64,000 nucleotides of DNA from Sphyrna mokarran (Eukaryota): positions 10,602,001-10,666,000 of the forward strand of contig JAGIQG010000034.1 in NCBI GenBank assembly GCA_024679065.1, read 5' to 3'. The notes under the pieces are model-generated. The model was not told the origin of the DNA, did no database searches, and saw only the letters and a program-made list of their open reading frames with translations. Positions 7,375-64,000 of this stretch are shown in pieces. Within the stretch, counting starts at the first letter, position 1. Each line of letters starts with the position of its first letter. The position numbers and the translations under genes are program-made.

Positions 7375-7791
7375 TTAATTACCCTGAGTCGACATCACAT
7401 CTGTCGACTGTGGATCACAGAATGCCCCATATCGGCCATAAATGTCCTTTGCTCGGACTGCAAAGTAGTACTTGCTTCCGGACACAAACTGAGTGAGGGT
7501 GCAGGCCATGGGAAGCGGCAATGCCTTCACTTCGCCAATCTTCTTCCACTGGGAAGGGGTTGTGGTAGCAGGATCTTCATGGTAGGCGTAGAGGTGATAG
7601 CTGTCCACAAGCGCACAAGAGCGGTCTACTTCCAGGACACTCCAGGACAGGACTATTCCATTCTGACTCTGGACGCGGGCGAGCTTGAGGTGAGGCTTCT
7701 GAGGTGGAGAAGTATTAGCAGCCTCTGGAGGTAACCGCTGTGGTGGCTGGGCCTCAGGGAGTGGTGCCGGGTGGATGGGTCGAGGTGGCTC
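7375..7791 (-). CDS. ATF7IP: ATF7IP terminal coding exon (C-terminal fibronectin type III domain)
   Basis: [14 protein letters not shown]...[30 protein letters not shown]...[39 protein letters not shown] is near-identical to the vertebrate ATF7IP C-terminus. Acceptor tcaatacag|GAG, phase 0; stop TAA. Confidence 0.97.
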
Positions 7792-9208: not shown

Positions 9209-9438
9209 TCTGCCAGACAAGGGGCAGATATACCACTGTACACAGATCTCCTTCAGGAAGGTGCAGATAAACCATTGCATATAGGTTTCTGTCAGGAAGG
9301 TGCGGATACACTACTGTATACAGGTCGCTGCAGGCAAGGGGCAGATAACCATTATACACAAGTCACTGCCAGGCAAGGGGCAGATACATGACTGTACTTA
9401 GGTGTCTGCCAGATAAGGGGTGGATACACTATCTGTAC
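9209..9438. repeat. Degenerate minisatellite, about 39-40 bp x 6
   Basis: Unit approximately tgccaggcaaggggcagatacaccactgtayacaggtc. Confidence 0.85.
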
Positions 9439-14150: not shown

Positions 14151-14329
14151 GACAGTCCCTTGTTGATTCTAGGGCAATTCTAGGTTGTTGCAAAAACATC
14201 GTTGCATGCTTATCTAATCTCAGAATTTATGTAATTTACCCATTACATAGCGGCAGACAGAAGGTACACAACTTCCATTAGATCTTAAATGCTCTCCTAT
14301 TTCCTAGTTCTACCTATTAGTTACCTCTT

Positions 14330-14810
14330 AGTGGAGGCTTTGGAGAGGGTACACAGGAGGTTTACCAGGATGTTGCCTGGTATGGAAGGCAGGTCTTATG
14401 AAGAGAGGCTGAGGGATTTGAGGTTGCTTTTGTTAGAAAGAAGGCGGCTAAGAGGAGACCTTATTGAAACATATAAGATGATTAGAGGTTTAGATAGGGT
14501 GGACAGTGATAGCCTTTTTCCAAGGATGGAGAAAGCTAGCACGAGGGGACATAGCTTTAAATTAAGGGGTGGTGGTTTTAGGACAGATGTCAGAGGTAGG
14601 TTCTTTACCCAGAGGGTGGTAAGGGTATGGAATGCCTTGCCTGCGTCAGTTGTAGATGTGCCAAGTTTGGTGGCTTTTAAGAGGTTAGTAGATAAGTTTA
14701 TGGATGAAAAGGGAATGGTTTAGGTTAGAGGGTCACTGCTTGTTCCTAATTGGTCGGTGCAACATCGAGGGCCGAAGGGCCTGTTCTGCGCTGTAATGTT
14801 CTATGTTCTT
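14330..14810 (+). mobile_element. Young CR1 LINE 3' end, 5'-truncated
   Basis: VEALERVHRRFTRMLPGMEGRSYEERL...FFTQRVVRVWNALP and a gttctat tail. Same family as 50236-52341. Confidence 0.92.
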
Positions 14811-15190: not shown

Positions 15191-15269
15191 CTTGTGCAGA
15201 GACATCATCTTCATCATCACCCGTCAGGTCAATAACCGCTCCCATGTCACTTCCTCCTGTCTTTGCACT
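15191..15269 (-). CDS. ATF7IP: ATF7IP exon with SUMO-interacting motif (VIDLT plus acidic patch)
   Basis: ttttctttcag|AGT...CAAG|gtatga, 79 nt, phase 0 to 1. SAKTGGSDMGAVIDLTGDDEDDVSAQ matches the MCAF1 SIM. Not in the ORF track. Confidence 0.93.
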
Positions 15270-18489: not shown

Positions 18490-21400
18490 CTCAGTCAAAT
18501 AGTTAGAGACTGAATTAATATGGAAAGATTGGTAAGTAATTACAGAATAGAGATTAACAAAAGAACCAGACATGGCAAGAAATTATTTTTTTCTTTAAAT
18601 GTAGCGATTCGCAATCTGGAATGCAGTATTTGAAAAGATGAAGAAAGAAACTCAATAGCAACTCTCAAAAAGGAACTAGATAAAATATTTGATCAGGAAA
18701 AAATTGTCAAGCCTATGAAAGAAAAGTACAGGAAAATGGAACTAGTTGGACAACTCTTTCAAAGAGGGCACTGGCACAATGGTCTGAAAGTCTTCCTTCT
18801 GTATTGCAATGTTGTGATTCTGATTGATCAAGTGATATTATGTAAATGTATTTAAGAGTTTCCAGAGGTTTAAGTGGAAATCAAATTGTTGCTTTTCATT
18901 GGTAAAATATATATTTTATTCATGTCTAAACGAATTGATGCATGATGTGTGTTGAGTTAGTAAATATCAACTGGGAAACTATAGGAGGGTACTGTAACTT
19001 TTCCCTGTGGCTCTAAATTGGGGAGAGATGAGGTGGGGTAACTACCAAAGATTCCTAATCACTATTTATCAAGTCAAACAGAAAAACATTTCCGTGCAAA
19101 CACTGGATGATAATAGGATTGTGACCCAGAGTTTCATAACCTCTTGTCAATTGAGGGGGCTACTTCATATTAAAATTCATAGAACAAAGGACAAAACAAC
19201 ACGGGAAACAGGGCCTTAGGCCCAAAGAGCCCGCGCCGTCACCTCAATGTTCCCACTTCTACCTGAGATCCCTGTCTATGTTTATAGATCGATGCATTGA
19301 AACCAAATTTGAGACAATTTAGGGAGAATTTGTTCTGCCAATCAGCCTAAGAGCACATCCTTGGGATGTGGGAGGAAACCGGAGCACCCGGAGAAAACCC
19401 ACGCAAGCATGGGGAGAATGCGCAAACTCCCACAGACACAGGCCCAAATCCATGTATCTGCACAGCACAGCGACAGTCACTGAGCTGTCGTGTTGCCCAT
19501 CAAATGGTCCAGGTCAAGCGTACACTAACGACGTGAAGCACGAGCATACTCTCGAAAAATATCCAAGAGCAGCCCTCTCACGACCCATCACGTGTATGCC
19601 CCTTGTTAGACAACAAGGCGGACCGAAGTACCTGTAGGATAAAACAAATACATCAATATCATTGACTATTTACACACTTCCCAGGGAACTCCCAAGACTC
19701 ATGATCCCTACTTTAAATCAGTTTTCTATATTCCTCCATTCCCATTCTGTTCATGTGCCCATCTAAGTATCTTTTAAATAACTCCAGAGTACCTGCCTCC
19801 ACCACTTGGCAGTGCATTCCATACCCCCACCACCCTCTGTGTGAAAAAACTCCCTCTAGCATCTAAATTATACCTTACCCCCCTCACCCTAAGCCCGTGA
19901 TCCCTCGTGCTATTTGAATCCATCCTAGGTAAAAACTTAACCCTGTTTACTCTATCTATACCCCTCATAATCTTGTACACCTCTATTAGATCTCCTCTAA
20001 GTCTACGTCTTTCTAAGAAAAACAGCCCCAATTTGCCTAACTTCTCCTTGTAACTCAGACCTTCCATACCAGGCAGCATCCTGGTAAACCTCCTCTGCAC
20101 TCACTCCAGAGTCTCCATGTCCTTCCGGTAGTAAGGCGACCAGAACTGGATGCAATATTCCAAATGAGGTCTAACCAATGTTTTATACAACTGCAATATT
20201 AAAGGCCAGCTCTTGTACTCTATACTCCTTCTTATAAAGGTAGCATACCATATGCTTTCCTCACAACCTTCTCCACCTGCTCTGCCACCTTCAGAGACTT
20301 GTGCATCTGCACCCCCAGGTCCCTCTACGTTTCTATACTCTTAATAGGTCTACCCTTTATCATATACCTCCCCCCTACATTCTTTCTCCTGAAATGCATC
20401 ACCTTGCATTCATCAGGATTGAATTTCATCTGCCATCTATGTATTAATACTTCTCAGAAACATAAAGCATCATTAGCAAAGAAGATAAAATAAATAGGGA
20501 GGATGGCTGTTAGAGAAGGAAATATATGCAAGCTGATGCTAACCATTAGAAGTGGCTTCAACTTGTAAATTAAAATGCAAACAAGCTGTTAGCAATCGCT
20601 GCAATTAGGAGTTTGTCAATTAAGCACATCCGGAACCAACATCTAGGGAATAATTAGTCACAGATGCAGTCAGACAAGCTGAGATTTTCTAGAATTTTCT
20701 GTTTCAGATTTTAGAATCCACAGTAATTTGCTTCTATTTAAAGGCTATAGCATCCTCATCAATTCCAGGTTGCAGATCAGGAATATCCAACAGGTTTTGT
20801 AACAAAGGCATGCACATTTTCTATGAATTCTATGCAGGCACTGCATTTTTCAATGTAACATTTAAACTTGTGGTAGATGTATAAGTTTCAAATAGATTAA
20901 CCGCAGGTCTTATTTGGCTGATCACTAGTCAAGGAAAAGTCTAATGGTAATGTTGCTATTCGTTTAACAGTACTTCACTCAACTAAATTAGACTCATCTA
21001 ATCATGACCATTGTTGAACAGCTTGTGATGTGGTCAGGTCCTAGGAAATCAGGACTCAGTAACCAACACCACACCCCTCATCCCTTTTGCAAATTCTGTC
21101 TCAGTGCGAGCTGAGCTGCACTGCACTATCAATGGTAATTGATCATTATACACCACAATACTAATGTATCCATAGTTAGCAGGCAGTGTGCCCAAACTTC
21201 CACAAGTAGTGCCACATATTGGTGGGATGAGGATTGAGAACTAGAGTCCATCTACATGGATCAGTTTTCAACATTGTCATCAGAAGCAGGGGGAAACCTT
21301 GAGGCAGCCAGGAACGGCTGTGGAGAGAGACATGTTGTATGCTCAAATCCACTACTATACCCAGCAGTTCTGTTCACTTAGCTTCAACTGTTTATTTGTG

Positions 21401-28143: not shown

Positions 28144-28401
28144 NNNNNNNNNNNNNNNNNNNNNNNNNNNNNNNNNNNNNNNNNNNNNNNNNNNNNNNNN
28201 NNNNNNNNNNNNNNNNNNNNNNNNNNNNNNNNNNNNNNNNNNNNNNNNNNNNNNNNNNNNNNNNNNNNNNNNNNNNNNNNNNNNNNNNNNNNNNNNNNNN
28301 NNNNNNNNNNNNNNNNNNNNNNNNNNNNNNNNNNNNNNNNNNNNNNNNNNNNNNNNNNNNNNNNNNNNNNNNNNNNNNNNNNNNNNNNNNNNNNNNNNNN
28401 N
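28144..28401. other. Assembly gap (258 N)
   Basis: Run of N. Confidence 1.
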
Positions 28402-31260: not shown

Positions 31261-32684
31261 TTAAAGCTAAAGAGAAAATCCCAGCTACTCCAATCTTTCA
31301 GCCCCAGGTACAATTCTAGCAAATCCCTTCCTCACCCTCTCCTTGGCTTTAAAAATTTTTCTTAATGATGCCCAGAATTGGATAATACTTAAGAGACTTC
31401 TAAAAGCTTTTTTTTAAATAACTCCCTTTCATCACTTTAGGGTGCTATTTATACAGCCAAGATGCTCGAGGGTTAAAAGAAAATTATATAGGCTTGCTCT
31501 GTCACCTTCAAAAGATTCTCATACACAATGGTACATGAACTCATGTGTTTTTCTACTCTTGCATCCCTTTACTTTAAAGATTGTACTCTTTAATTTATAT
31601 TAGTTTATAAATAATTTTGATAAGTTAAAATATGAATTCTATGAATCTTTGTAGAGTATTAAATATTATTGCAATATAAAGTTCATCTTATTTGTGCAAA
31701 TGAAATGCCTCCATTGTCCTGGTGATTGAAATTGCTAAAGGAGCAAAGTAAATGCACATGGGAATATGGGTACATTTTATGTATTGAACAAACTGTCTTC
31801 CATCTCTCAAAACGCTGGAAGTGACTTCAGATATTCTTTGCTCCCATTATGTGCAGGTTTTTGACCCTCCATATGTGGTATGCTCAAGTACCAAACACCA
31901 ATGTCATTCAACATCCATGTCCAAGAGGGACTGCAATTTAACTCCGGCCCTTGTTGAAAAAGCAGCATTGCATGTACTTGAAATCAGTTTGTTTTCTGTC
32001 ACAGGTTCCTGTATACAACTGACATTATTAAACTAGCACCGTCAAGAGACTAGTGTGGCACTATTATATTCAAACCAATGCAATGCTTGGGGGGTGGAAG
32101 GGAGGGGCTCCATAAATTTACTGCCTGATCTAGTTTTTCTTTCCAGCTCTATAATTAAAATGCAGGTTTCACTGTAACTGCATCTATTCTGAATTGATAT
32201 TTGCAAAATTCATGCATTTTGTTAAGGACACAACAAAGGTTCAGCAAGTCAATAGCACTGGTAGGACAGCAAAGTTTGTGTGCTGCTTTTCCAGGTACTG
32301 GCCTTCAACTCTGTAGATGTGAATCCATTGTCAACTCCAAAACAGGTTCCCTGCTTCATCAACTTTGCTGTCCCCCTTTTAACCAAGCAAATTTAAATGG
32401 CAAGCAAAATATATCTGAGCCAAGCAGATAAAGCAGGGAACCATTACAACACTGATCAAAAAAAATTAAAGGTTGATCTTTATAAAGTTAGCCAACCTCT
32501 ATTGATCAAAAGCTCAATTTAAAGAAACAAAACTGACCCAGAGTCATGTTCAAATTTAACACTGAAACTGCAATGTTATCATACTTTACAGCTGTTCATT
32601 TCAGAACTATATATTTTCTTTTAATACATTATTCATTTTTAAATTTTATGTAGCTTATTGAGTTTTGTTCACAACACTTTAAGT

Positions 32685-33929
32685 TCATTTTAGTCGTTCC
32701 TGCTTTATGACATAGTTCTGCAAGATGATCCCAGTATTTTTTCTGGAGACAGTATTGGGATTTAAAGTCACTGTAGAAGAAGTTGTTCCTGCTTGTGGGT
32801 CACGTGCTACAGAACTTGGAGCTGTGTAAATATAGTTGAACCCTACATTGTCTAACATGTCTGACCAAGCCCGGTACTGAAATTCTGCAGCTCCCCAGTA
32901 GTTTCTAATACTGGATTCTGAACGGTGGCCAGTAAGTGCCATGATCTCCCGTGCTCCAAGGCCAGCGTCACAGAGGAGACGAACAGTTGTAGTTCTGAGG
33001 GAATGGTTGGTGTACCTCTGGGAGAGTCTGGCAGCAATACTGATTCTAGGCATCATGCTTCCAAGATAGTTTACTCCCATTGGCTCCCTTTTATACCACA
33101 CAGATTGTTCTCGTAACTGCTCTGGTGTTAATTTTAGAGGGTGAAGGTAGAATGCAGGAGGGTCTGGTGGCAGTTTTGATATATAAAGTTCAAGCGAAGT
33201 GACTGGGCAGTTTACATCTCCTGGCATATCGTACATCCGGCCCAATTTCAATGGGTCCTCCTGGCTTTTACTTTTCCCAGTATACTTCAGCATTGCATAG
33301 CGTCGTCCATTGGGATCTCGCTTAATGACAAAAGCATCTGGAGGAAGGTCCCGAAGGATTTCCCGCCCACGCTTTGCAAAATGTAACTGCAGATCAAACC
33401 AGACTTTGTTCACAAGTGCAAGGGGTGTGTGAAGTCCCAGGACACCAGATGTCCTGATCTTTCGAAGATCGGCTGCATTAATAGGGGGATGATGATTTGT
33501 TTCATCCTTTCCTTGCTTTCTGAGTATCTTCAGCACTCCTAGGAACACATTATTGGCACTACTGAATTCCTTGTCTTGCATTAGGCAGATCTGTCGGCTG
33601 TGAGGAGGCATTTTAAGGTGCCTGTTTAAGCCTGCCCGGATAGATTTGTAACTGGAAATGCTATAGGTGTTACCATCGTGATTCCTTACAGTTCCATAAA
33701 ATTCTCTCAAAATACTGTTGAGTTCTTCCACTGACATAGTTTCAAATTTTTCATCTTTGCCCTTTTCAATAAGCCACTGTTTAAGAATATTTACAGCCCA
33801 GTCTGTCTGCTTACGGGTATTCTTCTCATTGCGTTCTTCCTCAAGTCCAATGAGATCTTCTTCAGTCACACTAACATGCCGCCTGGCTCCATCTAAAAGT
33901 TCGTTGCTGGCAATTTGTTCTTCTGTCAT
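32685..33929 (-). CDS. YR1: Crypton-type (DUF3504, KCTD1-N-like) tyrosine recombinase-fold protein nested in an ATF7IP intron
   Basis: Uninterrupted 414-aa ORF. N-terminal NTRKQTDWAVNIL...LREFYGTVRNHDGNTYSISSYKSIRAGLNRHL; catalytic boxes FAKRGRE (R187), TNHSLRTT (H309/R312), TGHRSESSIRNY (H335/Y344). Frame stays open upstream to about 34055. Confidence 0.92.
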   Translation of the reverse strand: MTEEQIASNELLDGARRHVSVTEEDLIGLEEERNEKNTRKQTDWAVNILKQWLIEKGKDEKFETMSVEELNSILREFYGTVRNHDGNTYSISSYKSIRAGLNRHLKMPPHSRQICLMQDKEFSSANNVFLGVLKILRKQGKDETNHHPPINAADLRKIRTSGVLGLHTPLALVNKVWFDLQLHFAKRGREILRDLPPDAFVIKRDPNGRRYAMLKYTGKSKSQEDPLKLGRMYDMPGDVNCPVTSLELYISKLPPDPPAFYLHPLKLTPEQLREQSVWYKREPMGVNYLGSMMPRISIAARLSQRYTNHSLRTTTVRLLCDAGLGAREIMALTGHRSESSIRNYWGAAEFQYRAWSDMLDNVGFNYIYTAPSSVARDPQAGTTSSTVTLNPNTVSRKNTGIILQNYVIKQERLK

Positions 33930-35298
33930 TTGGTCCTCAAAACTGAGCAGTGTGTTGCCATCGAAAATGCCATAGGTGTAGAGTGGGGGGTGAGACGCTG
34001 TTTTTTCGGACAGCTGTGAATTGCGGAGTAATACGTAATGTTTTGATATAATTCTTTAAATTAAAAAAGCTACACAAAATAATTCAGCAGGTGGCACTCG
34101 TTAAGGTTTCTTAGCAGAGGTGTGCCAACATTCAATAGCGCACACCCTATCAACCCATCTCTTTTACACATTACAAACCATGGCATTACATGTTGTCATA
34201 CAATGAACAGCAGAAGGGCTTGAGTTTGCTTTCAGTTCGACTAAAATGATGCTAAATCTCTTTTGTAACTGCTGGACCTTTTAGCTATTGAGATATTTGA
34301 TGAAGGAAAAGAAAATCAAATGGGGGGGAAAACACACTGATTTTATATATGTATTCTCTAGAAGAACTGGAAAAGTTTCAGTACCGCAACAAGAAAATCT
34401 GCATCAGAAATTTGAAATGGCTTACGAGTTCTACAAATGAACCTTGACTGACTGAACAGCTTCCACTTCTGCACTGTGACACGCTGAGCAACGAGTTACC
34501 CGAATTTAAGGCTGTTACAAATGTGTGGCACGGCTGTATCCCAATCAGAATGCGTCACTCAGTTGAAGGTTTCTGAAAACTTTTGACAGCATCTTGGAGG
34601 ATTGAATCCAGCTGTGCTGACGAGTGCTGTTTTGTTTAGAGAATCTTTCCAGTTTATGTAGAGAATGCACAACATAATTACCTTTTCCCTCTTGCCACCC
34701 AAATGATTTTTTTTTGTTTTAAACACGAGCACTCACCAGGATGCTTTCCACCACTCTCTTCTTTCTGGTGAGGCTAAAGACGTGAATGTACAACATAGTA
34801 CAGATATGACAACCACCTCCCCCGCTCCATCCCATTACACCTCTCTGGGTATTTGTGGAAGGGCTTGTCACATTTATTGTCTCAATATACTTATTCTGAC
34901 CACTAAGAAATCAAAAAAATTCCCCAAAACATAAAAATCAAATGTTGTGGCTTTAATTCTGCCAAGGTTGTCTGTAGATTTTGCAGAAAGGTGGATTTGA
35001 AAACAAAAGAGTTGGTTATATTTAAGTAGAAAAAATGTTAACTTACAGAACAACAATATTACCCCTTAGAACTTTACTGGGCAAACGTAACAAGCTGATC
35101 CATGGTGGATTACTGAGAAAGGAACAATGTGACAATTGGGTTCGTTTGTACAGATTCTTCTGTACAAACAGCAACCACATTTTACCCAAAGGGATAACTA
35201 TATTATATCAACTGGCTTGGCCAGGAAAGACAATGAGAGAGACTGCTGCCGAACATAACCGGTGGTCTGATCTGCATTGATAAATGTACTATACCCAC

Positions 35299-35390
35299 CT
35301 GATTGCCACTGGGTACTGGTTTTTTAGCAGCTGGTGACTCTGTTGGAACAGCTGTAGAATGTCTCTGGGTGGCCTGGCTGAAGCTGCTCT
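35299..35390 (-). CDS. ATF7IP: ATF7IP internal exon
   Basis: ccattaacag|AG...AATCAG|gtgggt, 92 nt, phase 1 to 0, bridging the flanking exons in frame. Encodes SSFSQATQRHSTAVPTESPAAKKPVPSGNQ. Confidence 0.85.
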
Positions 35391-46049: not shown

Positions 46050-46162
46050 CTGCGACACTGCACGCTACCAGAAGCGCTAGAAGGGTTATAGGTTTTGCTG
46101 GGAGAGACAGGTTGCGTAGATTGGAGCCCAGATGGTTGCTGAGGTGTGGAGGTGACTGGATT
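46050..46162 (-). CDS. ATF7IP: ATF7IP internal exon (most 5' canonical exon found in window)
   Basis: ttcatttaatccag|AAT...CGCAG|gtaaga, 113 nt, phase 0 to 2. NPVTSTPQQPSGLQSTQPVSPSKTYN...QCR, where PVSPSKT resembles mammalian PVSPGKT. Not in the ORF track. Confidence 0.85.
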
Positions 46163-46499: not shown

Positions 46500-48930
46500 A
46501 ACACAGAAAATAGGAGGAGGCCATTCAGCCGACCCTCCAACTTAACATCACAAGTGTGGAAATTTATTTCCTTTTTAAATATATTCAGTGACTTGGCCTC
46601 CAGTCTCTTCAGTGATTGCTTCCACAGAGTTTTGTGCTGGAGAGTTCCATAGGTTGACCAGCCTGAGTGAAGAAGTTTCTCCTCATCTCAGTTCTAAATG
46701 GCCTACCCTGTATCCTGTGACAGTAAACCCATTGTTCTAGATTAATCCACCCACACATGCCAGAGGATACATCACCCTTACATTCAGTCTGCCAGCCCTA
46801 TCAGAATTTTGAGTTACAATAAGATCCTCTCTCATTCTTCAAAGTGAATACAGGCCTAGTTGACTCATGACACTCCTGCTATCCCAATGTGGTAAACCTT
46901 CACTGCAAATTTTCTTGCAATGAAGACCGACATACTATTTCCCTTCTTAACTACTTGCCGCATCTGCTTCCAGTGACTGGTGAATTAGGGCACCCAGGTC
47001 CTTTTTGTATATCAACATTTTCCAGTCTATTACCAACTTTTCCCATTGAAAAGGAGATAACTTAACACTTATCCACCTTATTCCGCATTTTTGTCCACTT
47101 ACTCAACTTGTCTAAACTTCCTCGAAGACTCATAACATCCTCATCACCCATTCCTACCAATTTTGTGCTGTCAGCAAATTTAGAAATATTACATTTGGGC
47201 CCCTTATCCAAACTGAGAGTGTTACCATTGAATAGCTGGGGCCCAAGCACTGATCTCTACTATAGCCCACTAGTCACTACCTGCCACTTTGAAAAAACAT
47301 TTATTCCTGTTTCCCTACTACTGATGTTAGGCTAGCTGCTGCATAATTCTTTACTTTTTCCTTCCCTCCTTTTTTTCAAAATAGTGGAGATATGCTTACC
47401 ACTCTCCAGTCTGCTGGAACTGTTCTAGAACTCTATGGCCACCTTTATACCCTTGAATGTAAACGATTAGGCCCTGGGGATTTATCAGCTTTCAGTCTCA
47501 TTAATTCCTCGAACACTATTTCCTTCATTTCCTCCATCTCACTAGAAACTTGGTTCCGTAGAAATGGCACAGAAGGTTGCCCCTCCTGTTTATGCAGATC
47601 CAAAGACATCCAGGTACCCTTTTTAATGCCTTCTTCCCACACACAATCCTGCAGTTTACAGCACTTTAGGTGCAGATCCAGGTAAGAGTTTAGGGTCTCT
47701 GCCTCCACCACCAACTCAAGTGGCAAATTCCACAGCCTCTGATTAAAAATATTTCCCCTCATGTCTCCTCTAATCCTATGACCTGTGGTTTAACTTGAAT
47801 CAAAGACTCCTGGTTTTTGAGCTCTCTAAAAGAAAATAGGTTCCTTCTGTCTATTTCAACTCCATCCCTCACAATTTTGTATACCTCAATCATGTCACTC
47901 CTCAGCCTTCTCTGCTCCAAGGAAAACAACCCCAACCCCTCTAATCTCTCTTTATAGCCACAATTCTTCAGCCCTTGCAACATTTGAGTAAATCTTCTTT
48001 GCACGCTTCTCAGAGCAATTACATCCTTCCTCTAATGTGGTGACCAGAACTGCGCACACAATAGTCCAGTTGTGGCTTGTGTCTTACAGTTCCATCATTA
48101 CATTTCTGCTTTAATATTCTATACTCTGCCAATGGAGAGAATTCCATATGCCTTCTTTACAACCTTATCTATTCTGTACTGCTCCCTTTAGAGATCTGTG
48201 CACCTACACACCAAGATCTCTCACTTTAATTGACCGCCTTAGTATATCCCCATTTATTGTGTATTCGCTTTTACTGTTTGACCTCCCTAAATGCATGACC
48301 TCACACTTCAAGTTAAACTTTGTCTGCCATTTTCCTGCTCTCTCCACCAATCCATCTATCATTGTGGAGCTTATTCTTCTATACTATCCACTACATAGCC
48401 AGCTTTTGTGTGGTTTGCAAATTTCATAATCGTTCTCTCCCTACACCCCCCCAATGTTCAAGTCTAAATTGTTAGCATACAAAAGAAACAGAAGAAATCC
48501 CAAAGTCTAATAGAACACCATTTGAAACAGCTTTCCATTCACACGGGCAACTATCAACTATTACCCTTTTCTCTTGTTACTAATCCTGTTACTAAGCCAA
48601 CTTTGAATCCAATTTGCCCATCACCTGTATTCCATGGACTTTTATTTTTTTGACCAGTCTGCCACATACGGCCTTGTTAAATACCTTACTGAAATCCATG
48701 TAGACAACATCCATTGCACTATCCTTACTGATCCTCTTTGTCACTTCCTCAAAGAATTCAATCAAATTTGCAAAACATGACCTTCCCTTCAAGCCATGCT
48801 GACTATCCCTAATTAGTCCATTTCTTTTTAAGTGACAGTTTATCTCACCTCTTGGGATTGATTTTAACAATTTGTCCACCACCGAAGCAAGCCTAACAGG
48901 CCTATAAGTGTTTGGCATTTTCCTAGCAAT
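46500..48930 (-). mobile_element. Two adjacent or nested degenerate CR1 LINE fragments
   Basis: ISKFADSTKL, DKSPGP, QRRFTQMLQGL, YRPVRLASVV and DVVYMDFSK in broken ORFs. Confidence 0.85.
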
Positions 48931-50235
48931 GTTTTCTTTCTACATATTTGTTGTTAATTGACACCAAAGGCTACACTTAAAGAAAGGTTTTCCTTGCTTG
49001 TATCACATATGCAAGAATACAAATCTCAGGGGAAAGTGGTAATTGTCATAATTGCCATACTTAATGCATTCAGTTGCAAAATACTACTGTCACGATAAAG
49101 ACACTTGCCAATGCCAATTGCAATATCTGATGAAATAAAATAAGGAACAAGGAGCGAGTATGAGGGAAGCAGGTATGAGGGGGAAAAAAAAACAGTAGGA
49201 TTGCTATAAATAGACATACATGCAAACCAACAGTTCTATGTAATGTCTCAAAAAAAAACTTGCCAAGTGGCAAATTAATTGTTTTACACAGCGTTTATCC
49301 AAATTCAACTGAAAATGAGGCGAGTTTTGTTAACACGAAAACAAAAGCGCAACACAAAAGTGATGAAGTGAGTGAAAAACGTGCAGACTCTGCACAGTGA
49401 CCCAAGCCAGGAATCGAACCCAGATCCTGGTACCGAAAGGCAGCAGTACAAACCACTGTACCATCCATAAACAAATTGTTTGATGAGCAGTTAATGTATA
49501 GGATCAAAACTTCAAACAAATTGTCACTGAATTAATTTCTACCCAATCTTTATCAGATATGGTGTAAATAAAATGTTGAGAGATGGTTATATAATTTTCC
49601 CTGGCTTCACTTAGATTAATCTCATGTAACAGGGGTGAATAAATAACTGCTAAATATGTGTAATATCTAAGAGACACATCAATAAATATGTCTACACAGT
49701 GCATTAAAGGACAAACATAGGGTACCAGATCATTCAAACAAATGTCTATTGGTATAAATTTACGTCAAAGCCAAGTCCTTCAGTAACATAGTTGCTTTCT
49801 CATCTTCTACTTCACATTTGTATTTGACATAAAACAGCAATTTTTTTTTTACAAAACCATATCGATTTTGCACATGTATTGTTCTTCAGCATTATTATGC
49901 TGACTGTATTTCATGGCCTTCTACACAAAATGCTATAAGTATGATCAACTTCCAGTATTTTGACCAGAAACTTAACTGGATCATCCACACAAATACACGG
50001 ATTATAAAAGCAGCGTCAGAGGCAGGGTGCAACTCACTTCCTGACTCATGCCTTCTACAAGGTGGACAAGTTAGTAGTGTGGTGCAGTATTGCCCAGTTG
50101 CCTGGATGAGTGCATCTCCAATAATGTTCAAGTTCAACATCATCTTAAACAAAGTTGCCTGTTTTCCTTCTTGTAACCTTCTTAAACATTCATGCCCTTC
50201 ACCAATGGTTTACATCAGTGAGATGAGAGTGATTG

Positions 50236-52341
50236 GACTAGGGAACTACAGGGACTGGGAACATCTGGAATGTGGTGCTTATTCAAGGAGCAGCTGCTGC
50301 GAGTCCTTGAGAAGTATGTCCCTGTCAGGCAGGGAGGAAATGGACGAGTAAGAGAGCCTTGGTGTACGAAAAAAGTTGATTTGCTGGTTAAGAAGAAAAA
50401 GGAGGCTTATGTCAGGATGAGGCTTGAAGGCTCAGATAGGGCAATGGATAGCTATAGATTAGCCAGGAAGGAGGTAAAAAGTGAATTGAGGAGAGCTAAG
50501 ATGGGACACGAGAAGATGTTGGCTGATAGGATTAAGGAGAATCCTAAAGCTTTCTTTCGATATGTTAAGAATAGAAGATTGGTTAGGGCAAGATTAGGGC
50601 CAGTCATAGACAGGAGTGGGAAGTTGTGCGTGGAGCCTGAAGAGATTGGAGAGGCACTGAATAAATATTTCTCTTCGGTATTCACGCAGGGTGATGTAAA
50701 TGTAGTTATGGAGAGCACTGAGGTACAGGGTAGCAAACTGGAAAGTATTGAAGTAGATAGGGAGGATGTGCTAGATATTCTCGAGGTTTGAAGTTGGATA
50801 AGTCCCCTGGGCCGGACGGGATTTACCCTAGGATTCTCTGGGAGGCAAGAGAGGAGATTGCAGAGCCTCTGGCTCTGATCTTCAGGTCCTCGTTGGTTAG
50901 GGGTGTGGTTCCGGAGGACTGGAGGATAGCGAATGTGGTCCCATTGTTTAAGAAGGGGAAGAGAGACCTTCCAGGGAATTATAGGCCAGTGAGTCTTACT
51001 TCTGTTGTGGGCAAGGTATTGGAGAGAATTATTAAGGATAGGATTTATAGTTATTTAGAGAGAAATGAATTGATTGGGGATAGTCAGCATGGTTTCGTGA
51101 AGGGTAGGTCATGCCTTACTAACCTCATTGAGTTTTTGAGAAAGTGACCAGAGAGGTGGATGGGGGTAAGGCGGTTGATGTAGTATATATGGACTTTAGT
51201 AAGGCTTTTGATAAGGGGGCCCATGGAAGACTTCTACAGAAAATGCAGATGTGTGGAATAGAGGGTGATTTAGCTAATTGGATTAGAAAGTGGCTGGCAG
51301 ATAGAAGACAGAGGGTGGTGGTTGATGGGAGATATTCATCGTGGAGTTCGGTGACGAGTGGTGTGCCTCAGGGGTCTGTTTTGGGGCCCCTGCTGTTTGT
51401 AATTTATATAAATGATCTGGATGAGGGTATTGAAGGATGGATTAGTAAATTTGCAGATGACACTAAAGTCGGTGGAGTGGTAGATAGTGAAGAGGGGTGT
51501 TATAGTTTACAGAGTGACTTGGACAAGTTGCAGAGCTGGGCCGAGAGGTGGCAAATGGAGTTAATGTGGAAAAGTGTGAGGTAATGCACTTTGGCAGGAA
51601 CAATAAATGTGTAGAGTATAGGGCTAATGGTAGGGCTCTTAATAGTGTTGAGGAACAGAAGGATCTTGGTGTATGTGTAATAGATCCCTGAAAGTAGGCA
51701 GTCAAGTGGATAAAGTTGTTAAGAAGGCTTATGGAGTCTTAGCTTTTATTGGTAGGGGGATTGAATGTAGGAGCCGCAGCATAATGTTGCAGCTGTACAA
51801 AACTCTAGTGCGGCCGCACTTGGAGTATTGTGTGCAGTTCTGGTCGCCACATTATAAGAAAGATGTGGAGGCATTGGAGAGGGTACAGAGGAGGTTTACC
51901 AGGATGTTGCCTGGTATGGAGGGCAGGTCTTATGAGGAGAGGCTGAGGGATTTGAGGTTGTTTTCGTTAGAAAGGAAGAGGCTAAGAGGGGACCTGATCG
52001 AAACATATAAGATGATTAGAGGTTTAGATAGGGTGGACAGTGATAGCCTTTTTCCTAGGATGGAGAAGCTAGCACGAGGGGACACAGCTTTAAATTAAGG
52101 GGTATGAGTTATAGGACGGATATCAGAGGTAGGTTCTTTACTCAAAGAGTGATTAGGGAGTGGAATGCCCTGCCTGCAGCTGTTGTAGATGCGCCAAGTT
52201 TGGTGGCGTTAAGAGGTTAGTTGATAAGTATATGGATGAGAAGGGAATGGTTTAGTTAGGAGGGGCATTGCTTTTTATTTTGGTCGGCACAACATCGAAG
52301 GCCGAAGGGCCTGTTCTGTGCTGTATTGTTCTATGTTCTAT
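50236..52341 (+). mobile_element. Young 5'-truncated CR1 LINE with reverse transcriptase (frameshifted ORF2)
   Basis: [37 protein letters not shown] and FADD motifs over four ORFs; gttctat tail. Confidence 0.95.
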
Positions 52342-56418: not shown

Positions 56419-56685
56419 TCAATTCTTCTTGGTTTGTAACTTCAGCTTCCGTCTGGAGGCTATAGTCACTGCTTTGTGCACACAAACACTCTGCTGTCTC
56501 AAGGAAGAAGATGATCGTGAACAAGTGGCATTCTTCTTCAAAGGATTTGGAGGCTGCAAACAGTCAGATACTGCTTTCATTTCAGTCTTTTTGTAGGACA
56601 TCATTGCATTACTGCCATTTCCCATTCGCTCCTTAATTAGCTCTTCATCAAAGCCACGATTGTGAAGAGCAGCTACACTGCTGAC
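56419..56685 (-). CDS. YR2 exon B: C-terminal recombinase box II region and stop
   Basis: Acceptor tgtttgttgtag|GTC, phase 0. VSSVAALHNRGFDEELIKERMGNGSNAMMSYKK supplies the YR C-terminus (L..G..E..I.ERxGH.S...Y pattern) missing from exon A. 88 aa then stop. Confidence 0.85.
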   Translation of the reverse strand, partial: VSSVAALHNRGFDEELIKERMGNGSNAMMSYKKTEMKAVSDCLQPPNPLKKNATCSRSSSSLRQQSVCVHKAVTIASRRKLKLQTKKN

Positions 56686-58789: not shown

Positions 58790-60085
58790 GCAGGACATAG
58801 GTAGATTGGACAGATATGGCAGATGGAATTTAATCTTGATAAATGCGAGGTGATGCATTTTGGGAGAAAGAATGTAGGGGGAAGTTATATGATAAAGGTA
58901 GACCTATTAAGAGTACAGAAAAACAGAGGGACCTGGGGGTGCAGATGCACAAGTCTTTGAAGGTGGCAGAAAAGATGGAGAAAGTTGTGAAAAAAGCTTA
59001 TGGTATGCTAGTCTTTATAGGAAGGGGTGTAGAATACAACAGCTGGCGTCTAATGTTGCAGTTGTGTAGAACGTTGGTTAGACCTCATTTGGAATACTGC
59101 GTCCAGTTCTGGTCACCTTACTACCGGAAGGACATGGAGACCCTGTAGAGAGTGCAGAGGAGGTTTACCAGGATGCTGCCTGGTATGGAAGGTCTGGGTC
59201 GCGAGGAAAAGTTAGGCAAATTGGGGCTGTTTTCTTTAGAAAGACAGAGACTGAGAGAAGATCTATTAGAAGTTTACAAGATTCTGAAGGGTATAGATAA
59301 ACAGTGGTAAGCTTTTTCCTAGGTTGGAATCAAATATCACGAGGGGTCACGGGCTTAGGATGAGAGGGGCAAGGTGTCATTTGGGTGTTAGAGGGAGGTT
59401 TTTCACATGGAGGGTTGTAGGGGTTTGGAACGCACTGCCAAGTAAGGTGGAGGAGGCAGGCACGCTGGAAATACTTAAGAGATTTAAGAGGTACTTAGAG
59501 AGGCACATGAGCAGAATAGGGATGGAGGGATATAGAAGACTGATTTAAATAGAGATCATGAGCCTTGGGGCGTTTCTGGGAATTGCATAAGTTGTGCATA
59601 TTATTGATGTATTTCTCTTTTATCCTACAGGTACTTCAGTCCACTCTGTTGTCCAACAAGGGGCATACACACGATGGGTCATGAGAGGAATGCTTTTGGA
59701 TTTTGAGAGTAGCCTGGTGCTTCACATTGTTAGCGTACGCTTAAACTGGACCAGTTGATGGGCAACACGACAGCTCAGTGACCATCACTGTTGCTGTGCA
59801 GGTACAGGGATTTGGGCCGGTATCTGTGGGAGTTTGCGCATTCTCCCCGTGCTTGTGTGGGTTGTCTCCGGGTGCTCCAGTTTCCTCCCACACTCCAAAG
59901 ATGTGCTTTAAGGCTGATTGGCAGAACAAATTGTTCCTAAATTGTCTCCCCAATTTGGTTCCAATGCAGATTTCCATAAACATGGACAAGGGTCATGGGT
60001 GAAAGTTGGAAAGTTAAAATGGCAGCACAGGCTTGTTGGGCCGAAGGGCTTGTTTCCTGTACTGTGTTGTTCTTTGTTCTTTTGC
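58790..60085 (+). mobile_element. CR1 3' end with a SINE-containing extended 3' region (copy 2)
   Basis: LVRPHLEYCVQFWSPYYRKD...WNALP, then the same unique segment, SINE core and tail as 19178-20435. Confidence 0.88.
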
Positions 60086-62465: not shown

Positions 62466-64000
62466 CCTTCCAGATTGGCCAGTATGTCGCCCCGAAATGC
62501 CACCCGCCTCACAGATTTCTTTGGAGTAATGCTCCAGAGTGTGAACTCCAATAGCTTGCAGGCAGAACTCCAGCCGCCCAGGAAGAGGGCGCCGGTAAAA
62601 TGGACCATCTCTTGGAACCATGCTGAGGTAGCGACGAAAGAGAGAAACAATGCATCTTGGGTTGGATAAGTCTGCGTACTGCCGGATATGTCCTTTTGTT
62701 CTTTGGATTCCATCTCTGTAAGGCTTTGCCACAAATTCCAAATATTCTCCAATTTCATCAGCTCCAAAGCTGAACTGATCAACCATCAATTTATTGTGTT
62801 CTGCTGCTGCATGTACACCAAAGACTTTACAGAGGTAGAAATAGACAGCATAACTGTAACTTCTTGCATCTTGAAGTTGAAAAACTATTTGCCACAGTTT
62901 TTCTTCTTCTTTCTCAGAGTAAGGCTGTGCTTGTTTCCTTACTATACCAATCCCCTGTTGTTTAAGTTTTCTCATTTGCCTGTTGAGGATAGACCGAAAT
63001 GCAGCATATTCTGTGTTATATTCATTAAAGAAATCAATGTCCAGTCGCTGGCAGGTTTCACGCAAGTATCGCAAAATGGAGCAGCACAGGAGTCGGAGAG
63101 AATTAGGCGGATAAAATGATCCATCACGCCGACGCACTTCCTCCACAAACTGGCACAACCAGAAATTCAGTTGGTTGTGAGTTATTTCATGAGACAGTTC
63201 CGGCACATAAAGGGATGGCTTGCATAATTCCACGCTATTTTCCATAAAGTAATTATTTCGATTCCTAGCCCACTCATCCCAAGCTCGAATGCCCCAGGCG
63301 GTGGCTCTCCTTGTATTGTATGGCATTGTGTTATCTGGAATAATTATCTGCTTTTTGTCTGGTGCAGGTTCATAATTGCCTTTGGGAGTTCTATCATCCT
63401 GCAGCTTCATAGAAGGTTCAGCACACGTATTAAAGAGAACTCTACTCGCTAGCAATACTGTACGTTGATTTCCTGAAATTCTTTTGTTGTATCTAATCTT
63501 ATTCTTTTGTAATATTACATGTGGCTTACTTAAATCAGGCTCATCAAGGACACAGGGAATCCTCTTCTCAAGTAGTACTGTGTGTTGTTGGTCTGTGTAA
63601 GATTTTCCTAAGATACTACAAGGACCATTATGCTCTAGTGAAAGTAGCGACCTTTGCTGGACAAGAATATTATCAACCTGTGGTTTCTCTGTAGTTAAGT
63701 GGACAAAAGTACTCTTGGAAGTTCTACTAATTTTTAACGCAGTCTCATGCTCCTTCATTATAATGTCTCTGAATGAGTTATAATGACCTTGATTATTTAT
63801 TAAAACAGCCTGCTGTTTATCTGTAATGAGTTTCTGTTTAATACTTAAAGGTATATTATGCTGTAATAGAGCCTGTTGTTCTAATGTAACAGCTTTGCCC
63901 AATTCAGCAGAAATCCTACAATCTGGCAGTGGAACTTTCTGCTTTATTAAAGGCTCACCAGATCTATTATCTTGTAATGCAATTTGTCGATTGTATAATG
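62466..64000 (-). CDS. YR2 exon A: Crypton/DUF3504-type recombinase-fold protein, 5' end beyond the window
   Basis: Frame open from the window edge (LYNRQIALQDN...). Contains NTRRATAWGIRAWDEW, LNFWLCQFVEEVRRRDGSFYPPNSL, EEEKLW, FGVHAAAEH and HTGQSGR. Ends at consensus donor AGG|gtaagc, phase 0. Confidence 0.88.

Follow-up and report, generated by a model that had tools for sequence, protein, structure and literature searches.

Kojima and Jurka (2011, PMC3212892) described a tyrosine recombinase (YR) ORF in an intron of ATF7IP and predicted, without mRNA support, that alternative splicing fuses it to the host protein. This Crypton-derived ORF is intact in zebra finch, alligator and chimaera, carries a frameshift in chicken and turkey, and has decayed in mammals (PMC3212892, PMC9004415), and the insertion has been dated to the gnathostome ancestor (Frith 2022, PMC9004415). 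A comparable arrangement is CSB-PGBD3 (PMC2268245), where an intronic DNA-transposon enzyme forms an in-frame alternative 3' terminal exon behind the N-terminus of a chromatin protein. Crypton YR-derived domains also occur in other vertebrate transcriptional regulators, namely KIAA1958 (isoforms a and b), KCTD1b, ZMYM2/3/4 and QRICH1.

The host protein acts with SETDB1 as a core transposon silencer whose targeting is partly known, mostly from mammalian studies. The SETDB1-binding region of ATF7IP is essential, and its FN3 domain is a hub for ZMYM2 and MGA (PMC7706265); ZMYM2 is itself a DUF3504 protein (PMC3212892). The SIM of ATF7IP binds SUMO2/3 (PMC3728336), and SETDB1 and ATF7IP associate 1:2 by way of a coil some 93 residues long (PMC12167477). 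Further background is given in PMC13108219 and PMC10380595.

The window analyzed here, 64,000 nucleotides of a Sphyrna mokarran contig, covers the 3' portion of ATF7IP, which is encoded on the minus strand, and the exons for the first ~510 residues lie outside it. One 20-kb intron harbors an ORF that we call YR1. By its host intron and its orthology to the bird and chimaera ORFs, YR1 is the same element as the ATF7IP-intron Crypton of the two earlier papers. Since the element and its predicted fusion have already been published, and public gene models contain the junction, the finding is largely known. In their available portions, PMC3212892 and PMC9004415 report neither the junction nor the conserved extension, and the tandem acceptors, the loss of SIM and FN3, and a second domain, YR2, are likewise absent from those portions; all five are described below. 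Our literature search, which covered subscription journals thinly, found no experimental study of an ATF7IP-Crypton fusion.

The first-pass annotation had claimed an in-frame splice from ATF7IP into YR1, and both of its splice sites were verified. An ATF7IP coding exon (35299 to 35390, minus strand, as are all exons given below) ends in phase 0 at 35299 with the donor AATCAG/gtgggt, which the YR1 route and the canonical SIM/FN3 route both use. The acceptor, ...ctccgcaattcacag/CTG, opens the YR1 exon in phase 0 at 34013. The GT-AG intron between them (34014 to 35298, acceptor CAG at 34016-34014) measures 1285 nt, in agreement with the claimed spacing of about 1.3 kb. YR1 would then form an alternative last exon of 442 codons (32685 to 34013) encoding a Crypton tyrosine recombinase/DUF3504 domain. 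A candidate polyadenylation signal, ATTAAA, is found on the same strand at 32620 to 32625, 60 nt past the stop; AATAAA is absent within 3.7 kb.

Three further upstream exons (46162-46050, 43348-43260 and 42198-41521) are common to both isoforms and carry the second half of Pfam ATF7IP_BD together with a low-complexity region. Splicing the four upstream exons to the YR exon in silico gave 766 codons whose sole stop is terminal, and joining the same four to the SIM exon gave zero stops; both paths are therefore in phase 0. The canonical next exon, with the SIM-like motif VIDLT (15191 to 15269), and the canonical last exon, encoding FN3 (7375 to 7791; Pfam fn3_4, E 1.5e-41), both lie downstream of the YR stop and would be skipped in the YR1 isoform.

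Judged by sequence alone, the acceptor at 34013 is mediocre. Its pyrimidine content is 0.60 over -23 to -4, which bears out the earlier description of the tract as moderate and falls inside the range of nine other ATF7IP acceptors (0.50-0.90); a 38-nt AG-free zone precedes it. The same loose filter lets through 90 yAG sites in the 20-kb intron, of which the YR1 acceptor is the ninth from the donor and the sole one to open more than 60 codons (442). As the acceptor is not special as sequence, the case for the fusion rests on orthologues. A rival acceptor, AAG at 34053 (placed earlier at about 34055), is out of phase, and the out-of-frame path was used in none of the 107 fusion models listed below. 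An internal cassette use of YR1 was also considered: the one phase-0 donor in the window past the catalytic tyrosine (32847) is weak, its codon differs in other sharks, and such an exon was found in a single listed model (1/107), Willisornis X1, where the YR exon is internal and SIM and FN3 are retained.

The introns also contain fragments of LINE reverse-transcriptase ORFs (14289-14723, 19774-20100, 47445-47789, 48592-48939, 50222-52098 and 58843-59148), which we take by motif to be CR1-like. The 20-kb intron includes a 258-base run of N (28144-28401), and a late ATF7IP intron has a 39/78-bp tandem repeat at 9210-9397. We found no tandem repeats of relevance in the window, and no Rfam match.

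A search for relatives longer than the 442-aa exon gave 122 matches, and the counts reported here are drawn from the 120 listed. Among these, 107 predicted proteins fuse ATF7IP_BD to YR1. Their names point to about 67 species of bird, 4 of turtle, 1 of frog and 3 of cartilaginous fish; by the same reading, 99 of the models belong to birds or other close relatives and are non-independent. The four chondrichthyan models link the two exons at exactly the codon proposed for the window: the NCBI predicted isoforms Heterodontus X3 and Chiloscyllium X3 read PSGNQ/LSEKT, Narcine X2 reads PSGNQ/PSEKT, and the predicted Callorhinchus protein in UniRef reads GGGSQ/LSEKT. The proposal that YR1 is an alternative last exon that drops SIM and FN3 likewise agrees with these predicted proteins, both being absent from 106 of the 107. 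No fusion model from a mammal, lizard or crocodilian was found among the 120 matches listed.

Three acceptors are used by the listed models: 27 take the long one, 39 give a QQLK junction and 41 a QLK junction. The long acceptor is used in all four chondrichthyan models, and its homolog in 24 further tetrapod models among the matches listed. Bird, turtle and frog models use this homologous acceptor or tandem ones 28-29 codons downstream; the tandem acceptors of birds and turtles leave out the extension and correspond to 33935-33929 in the window. The shark sequence there, CAA ATG, could not serve as a bird-type tandem acceptor, and we rejected the in-frame GAG at 33935 as a start of the exon because the shark has CAA where birds require CAG and because the chondrichthyan models all take the long acceptor. 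The mallard models show all three variants, which suggests that they derive from transcripts.

It could be argued that the fusion reflects an artefact of annotation, or noisy splicing at an intronic fossil that has been conserved. The fusion proteins are indeed predicted models, models can propagate between species, and no mRNA or EST was known in 2011 (PMC3212892). However, the frame is open, protein identity is 73-98% across jawed vertebrates, the exon starts at the same place in chimaera, sharks, ray, frog, turtles and birds, and alternative tandem acceptors are annotated inside single species. We therefore regard an artefact as highly improbable, and the comparison of gene models indicates that the fusion isoform very probably exists.

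The first 28 codons of the YR1 exon (33930 to 34013) form an in-frame extension ahead of the first methionine that is conserved from chimaera to birds. Among cartilaginous fish 22-26 of its 28 residues are identical, and 15/28 are shared with duck and with green turtle. Conservation in orthologues had been set beforehand as the test of the extension, and it was borne out, none of 2000 shuffles reaching the observed score in each of 10 comparisons. A transposon origin of the extension was also considered. It resembles the N-terminal motif of teleost Cryptons at one offset, in a comparison with a profile of 4 rows chosen by motif out of 19, but 59-88 of 1000 shuffles score equally or higher, so the likeness is not significant.

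These data bear on the possibility that YR1 is chiefly a nested gene in its own right, with a separate promoter and a start at Met 33929, the upstream AG being 5' UTR or a minor acceptor. One such model exists, in the bird Pseudopipra, where the YR is annotated as a separate gene (LOC135414436, 378 aa). The first-pass annotation had cited two out-of-frame ATGs as a weak argument against a plain 5' UTR. Both are present, at 33973 and 33961, but their contexts are weak and they do not exclude a UTR; the stop of their ORF overlaps the main ATG. A 15-codon out-of-frame ORF runs from 33973 to 33926 on the minus strand, its TGA overlapping the ATG at 33929 (ATGA). On the other hand, Met 33929 is replaced by Leu in 103 of the 107 listed models, the first methionine of birds and turtles lies 103 codons further in, within the core-binding domain, the ATG in the window is flanked by C (-3) and A (+4), and the extension is conserved as protein. 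A stand-alone gene is thus very unlikely as the main product.

The YR1 protein passes the gathering score of Pfam DUF3504 (48.8 bits against a cut-off of 29.7, E 1e-12) and comprises core-binding and catalytic domains at residues about 60-390. Its predicted structure is of moderate confidence (mean pLDDT 66, pTM 0.52), with most of the 60-390 core at 70-90. The model matched Cre (Foldseek E 7.4e-08; VIA Z 16.8, rmsd 6.6, 290 aligned), XerA (Z 15.8, rmsd 3.4, 178 aligned), XerH, and the QRICH1 chain of 9hjt, a DNA-bound Zincore entry (Z 13.6, rmsd 15.5, 251 aligned). A sequence search of the PDB with YR1 gave nothing significant (best E 0.13). On this model, QRICH1 would share the YR1 fold. Like Cre, Xer and lambda-Int, and like active CryptonA, YR1 combines a core-binding and catalytic fold with the residues R-E-H-R-H-Y. 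It is only 12-16% identical to Cre and differs from active CryptonA in being a single copy in the window, at one orthologous locus, where flanking or terminal repeats were not convincingly found.

The YR1 exon is 95% identical to that of Heterodontus. Over 326 aa the YR core is 94-98% identical among cartilaginous fish (95% to chimaera) and 73-78% identical to frog, turtle and birds (78% to zebra finch). The SETDB1-binding region is less conserved between sharks and tetrapods, at 47-54%. In a quick tree of 31 rows picked by hand among named matches, the YR1 orthologues of chimaera, sharks, ray, sturgeon, coelacanth, frog, turtles and birds formed one clade (SH-aLRT 96), and the upstream exon junction and the next SIM exon at the locus are the same as in bird models. 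The C-terminus of YR1 reads IKQE (32688-32708, minus strand); [VIL]KQE ends 95 of the 107 listed models, while the tail preceding it diverges between them. This ending presumably fits the SUMO-acceptor consensus. The YR1 isoform may therefore give up a SUMO-binding motif and gain a SUMO site in exchange.

All six catalytic residues are intact in YR1: R215, E218, H337, R340, H363 and Y372, with codons starting at 33371, 33362, 33005, 32996, 32927 and 32900 on the minus strand. They were assigned by motif and by alignment to CryptonA-1_OL from a paper's supplement, not by superposition of side chains. Seven active-site residues are given in PMC13465315, the available part of which does not mention ATF7IP. 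R-E-H-R-H-Y is intact in 98 of the 107 listed fusion models, and all 10 of the deep representatives share it unchanged. In contrast, other domesticated DUF3504 genes of vertebrates no longer have the catalytic tyrosine or the second arginine (PMC3212892), the tyrosine is gone from a saury fusion, and YR2 lost three of the six residues. Seen against these relatives, the retention of R-H-R-Y in YR1 appears unusual.

Could the YR part of the same isoform still be an enzyme, tethered to SETDB1 and acting as a site-specific recombinase or in a nicking/topoisomerase-like way? The intact residues point that way, as does the whole Cre-like fold that the structural model suggests is kept. However, 214 of the 326 core columns (66%) are invariant in the ten deep representatives, so that five given columns would all be invariant with a probability of about 0.12; on this alignment, retention of the catalytic residues is not significant against background. 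The likely catalytic lysine also argues against an enzyme. K249 of the window aligns with the TKNH lysine of medaka CryptonA-1, and in 108 sequences this position is K in 97, R in 10 and P in 1, the R or P occurring in other sharks, ray, chimaera, turtles and frog. The adjacent K247 is K in 106 of the 108 and might substitute for K249; the loop 246-256 is predicted with pLDDT under 50. Finally, flanking repeats that might serve as a substrate were not found around YR1.

Nine listed models lack the complete set of residues: seven are truncated, the pigeon has Y changed to C, and one is partial. The seven, six galliform models and that of the hoatzin, stop ahead of H363 and Y372. Galliformes, hoatzin and pigeon appear to have lost the catalytic end in separate events. 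The mousebird YR1 model has a divergent tail. The galliform YR1 is 95% identical to zebra finch across the preceding 291 aa, while duck and finch are 99% identical; it thus seems still constrained but relaxed. Since the galliform copy is evolving faster than duck against finch, its truncation may be a first stage of decay and not a demonstration that catalysis is dispensable. The truncated models and the pigeon nevertheless count against an active enzyme, which we consider unlikely, and DNA cleavage is probably not the essential function of YR1.

A second Crypton/DUF3504 domain, YR2, lies in an earlier ATF7IP intron, upstream of the exon at 46162. Its first exon runs off the window (62466 to 64000) and ends in a phase-0 donor, AGG/gtaagc; its second (56419 to 56685) adds 88 codons, a stop and the end of the domain. 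YR2 is 22% identical to YR1 and 91% identical to its counterpart in Mustelus asterias. All six longer matches are from elasmobranchs, and four of the six models, from Mustelus, Heterodontus, Heptranchias and Rhinoraja, are predicted to combine ATF7IP_BD with YR2. In three of these YR2 follows directly after the coil exon ending KKAQE or KKVQE, while the skate model uses a later acceptor. The YR2 fusions keep only positions 4-100 of the 219-position ATF7IP_BD profile, a part that is probably the SETDB1-binding coil. YR2 is thus a second alternative 3' end of ATF7IP in the predicted elasmobranch models, which would give the elasmobranch gene what appear to be three alternative 3' ends. KIAA1958, with two DUF3504 exons as alternative ends, offers a parallel to YR1 and YR2.

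The catalytic pattern of YR2 is H-E-Q-R-N-Y, whereas R-E-H-[KR]-H-Y occurs in 20 of its best 60 unnamed relatives, and YR2 is therefore likely inactive. None of the 148 unnamed relatives had a match to the ATF7IP N-terminus; some of them are chains of 1200-1500 aa that hold two or three YR-like stretches. We found no title or abstract on YR2 in a literature search in which subscription journals were thinly covered and the 2011 figures lay outside the scope, and the domain seems to be undescribed.

A further fusion occurs in the saury Cololabis saira, where ATF7IP isoform X2 has a YR joined after the SIM. This YR groups with teleost Cryptons and not with YR1, and the single model is possibly a third independent capture or a recent insertion. 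Related Crypton YRs are fused in fish models to SET/hAT-dimer proteins (percomorphs), ZMYM4 (loach), C2H2 fingers (catfish) and THAP/KRAB (lungfish).

How might the YR1 fusion have arisen, and what might it do? A CryptonA transposon would have inserted into an ATF7IP intron in the jawed-vertebrate ancestor and been captured as an alternative 3'-terminal exon. Splicing from 35299 to 34013 would yield a protein of ~1280 aa that keeps the N-terminal region and the SETDB1-binding coiled coil, loses SIM and FN3, and terminates in a complete tyrosine-recombinase fold. ATF7IP_BD is retained in the YR1 fusion. The partner-recruiting tail, whose partners include the DUF3504 protein ZMYM2, would thereby be swapped for a DUF3504/YR domain of the protein's own. 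We infer that the YR part is a DNA-binding targeting module that brings SETDB1 and H3K9me3, and we put the probability of this reading at roughly 0.55. The built-in module would bind or clamp DNA and direct SETDB1, hence H3K9me3, to sites of its own, independently of the FN3 partners (ZMYM2, MGA and MBD1) and of SUMO binding. As each SETDB1 is bound by two ATF7IP chains, a complex would carry either a pair of YR domains or one YR next to one canonical tail. The ORF was lost in mammals (PMC3212892), and no fusion model from a mammal, lizard or crocodilian is among the matches listed, so the function would not be essential to all amniotes.

Alternatively, the isoform could be a decoy or dosage regulator that binds and stabilizes SETDB1 and diverts it from targets recruited through FN3, the YR serving for protein contacts or multimerization. 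Such a role would be consistent with the effects of deleting FN3, which weakens silencing and leaves some germline genes unsilenced while SETDB1 stays nuclear (PMC7706265), with the self-association of ATF7IP in the 1:2 complex (PMC12167477), and with three unrelated YRs on the same N-terminus in different lineages. However, a decoy would have no need for 73-78% identity over 326 aa between sharks and tetrapods, or for intact phosphate-contacting residues, and we think this role improbable in comparison with a targeting module. It is also doubtful that in non-mammalian jawed vertebrates the isoform tethers a still-active recombinase to SETDB1, coupling programmed DNA nicking or recombination to heterochromatin, and that ATF7IP captured Cryptons independently at least three times. 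Under that joint reading, YR1 would have been captured in the gnathostome ancestor, YR2 in elasmobranchs and a third YR in the lineage of the saury model; if it were true, SETDB1 would have been given interchangeable transposon-derived targeting heads.

The locus resembles CSB-PGBD3 in having an in-frame acceptor upstream of the ORF in a host intron, and in a junction and fused ORF conserved across species, in our case at the protein level only. Like CSB-PGBD3 and other host-transposase fusions (bioRxiv 10.1101/2020.05.07.082677), the predicted YR1 fusion coexists with the parental transcript; the available text of that preprint contains neither "crypton" nor "ATF7IP". On the other hand, CSB-PGBD3 and those other fusions involve DDE transposases, and CSB-PGBD3 is about 43 My old, whereas YR1 is a tyrosine recombinase of gnathostome age, and old host-transposase fusions usually displace the parental isoform while the predicted YR1 fusion still coexists with it. 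Unlike KIAA1958, KCTD1b, ZMYM2/3/4 and QRICH1, YR1 was lost in mammals.

With the exact junctions, a truncation that occurs naturally in chicken, and alleles of duck and finch that are intact, the conjecture of 2011 becomes directly testable. YR1 would be the sole described vertebrate domestication of a Crypton that keeps the catalytic tetrad. Mammals, the main system in which SETDB1 targeting is studied, lost the YR1 exon. If the targeting reading is true, a conserved isoform with a transposon-derived DNA-binding head would constitute a targeting route that is missing from mouse and human.
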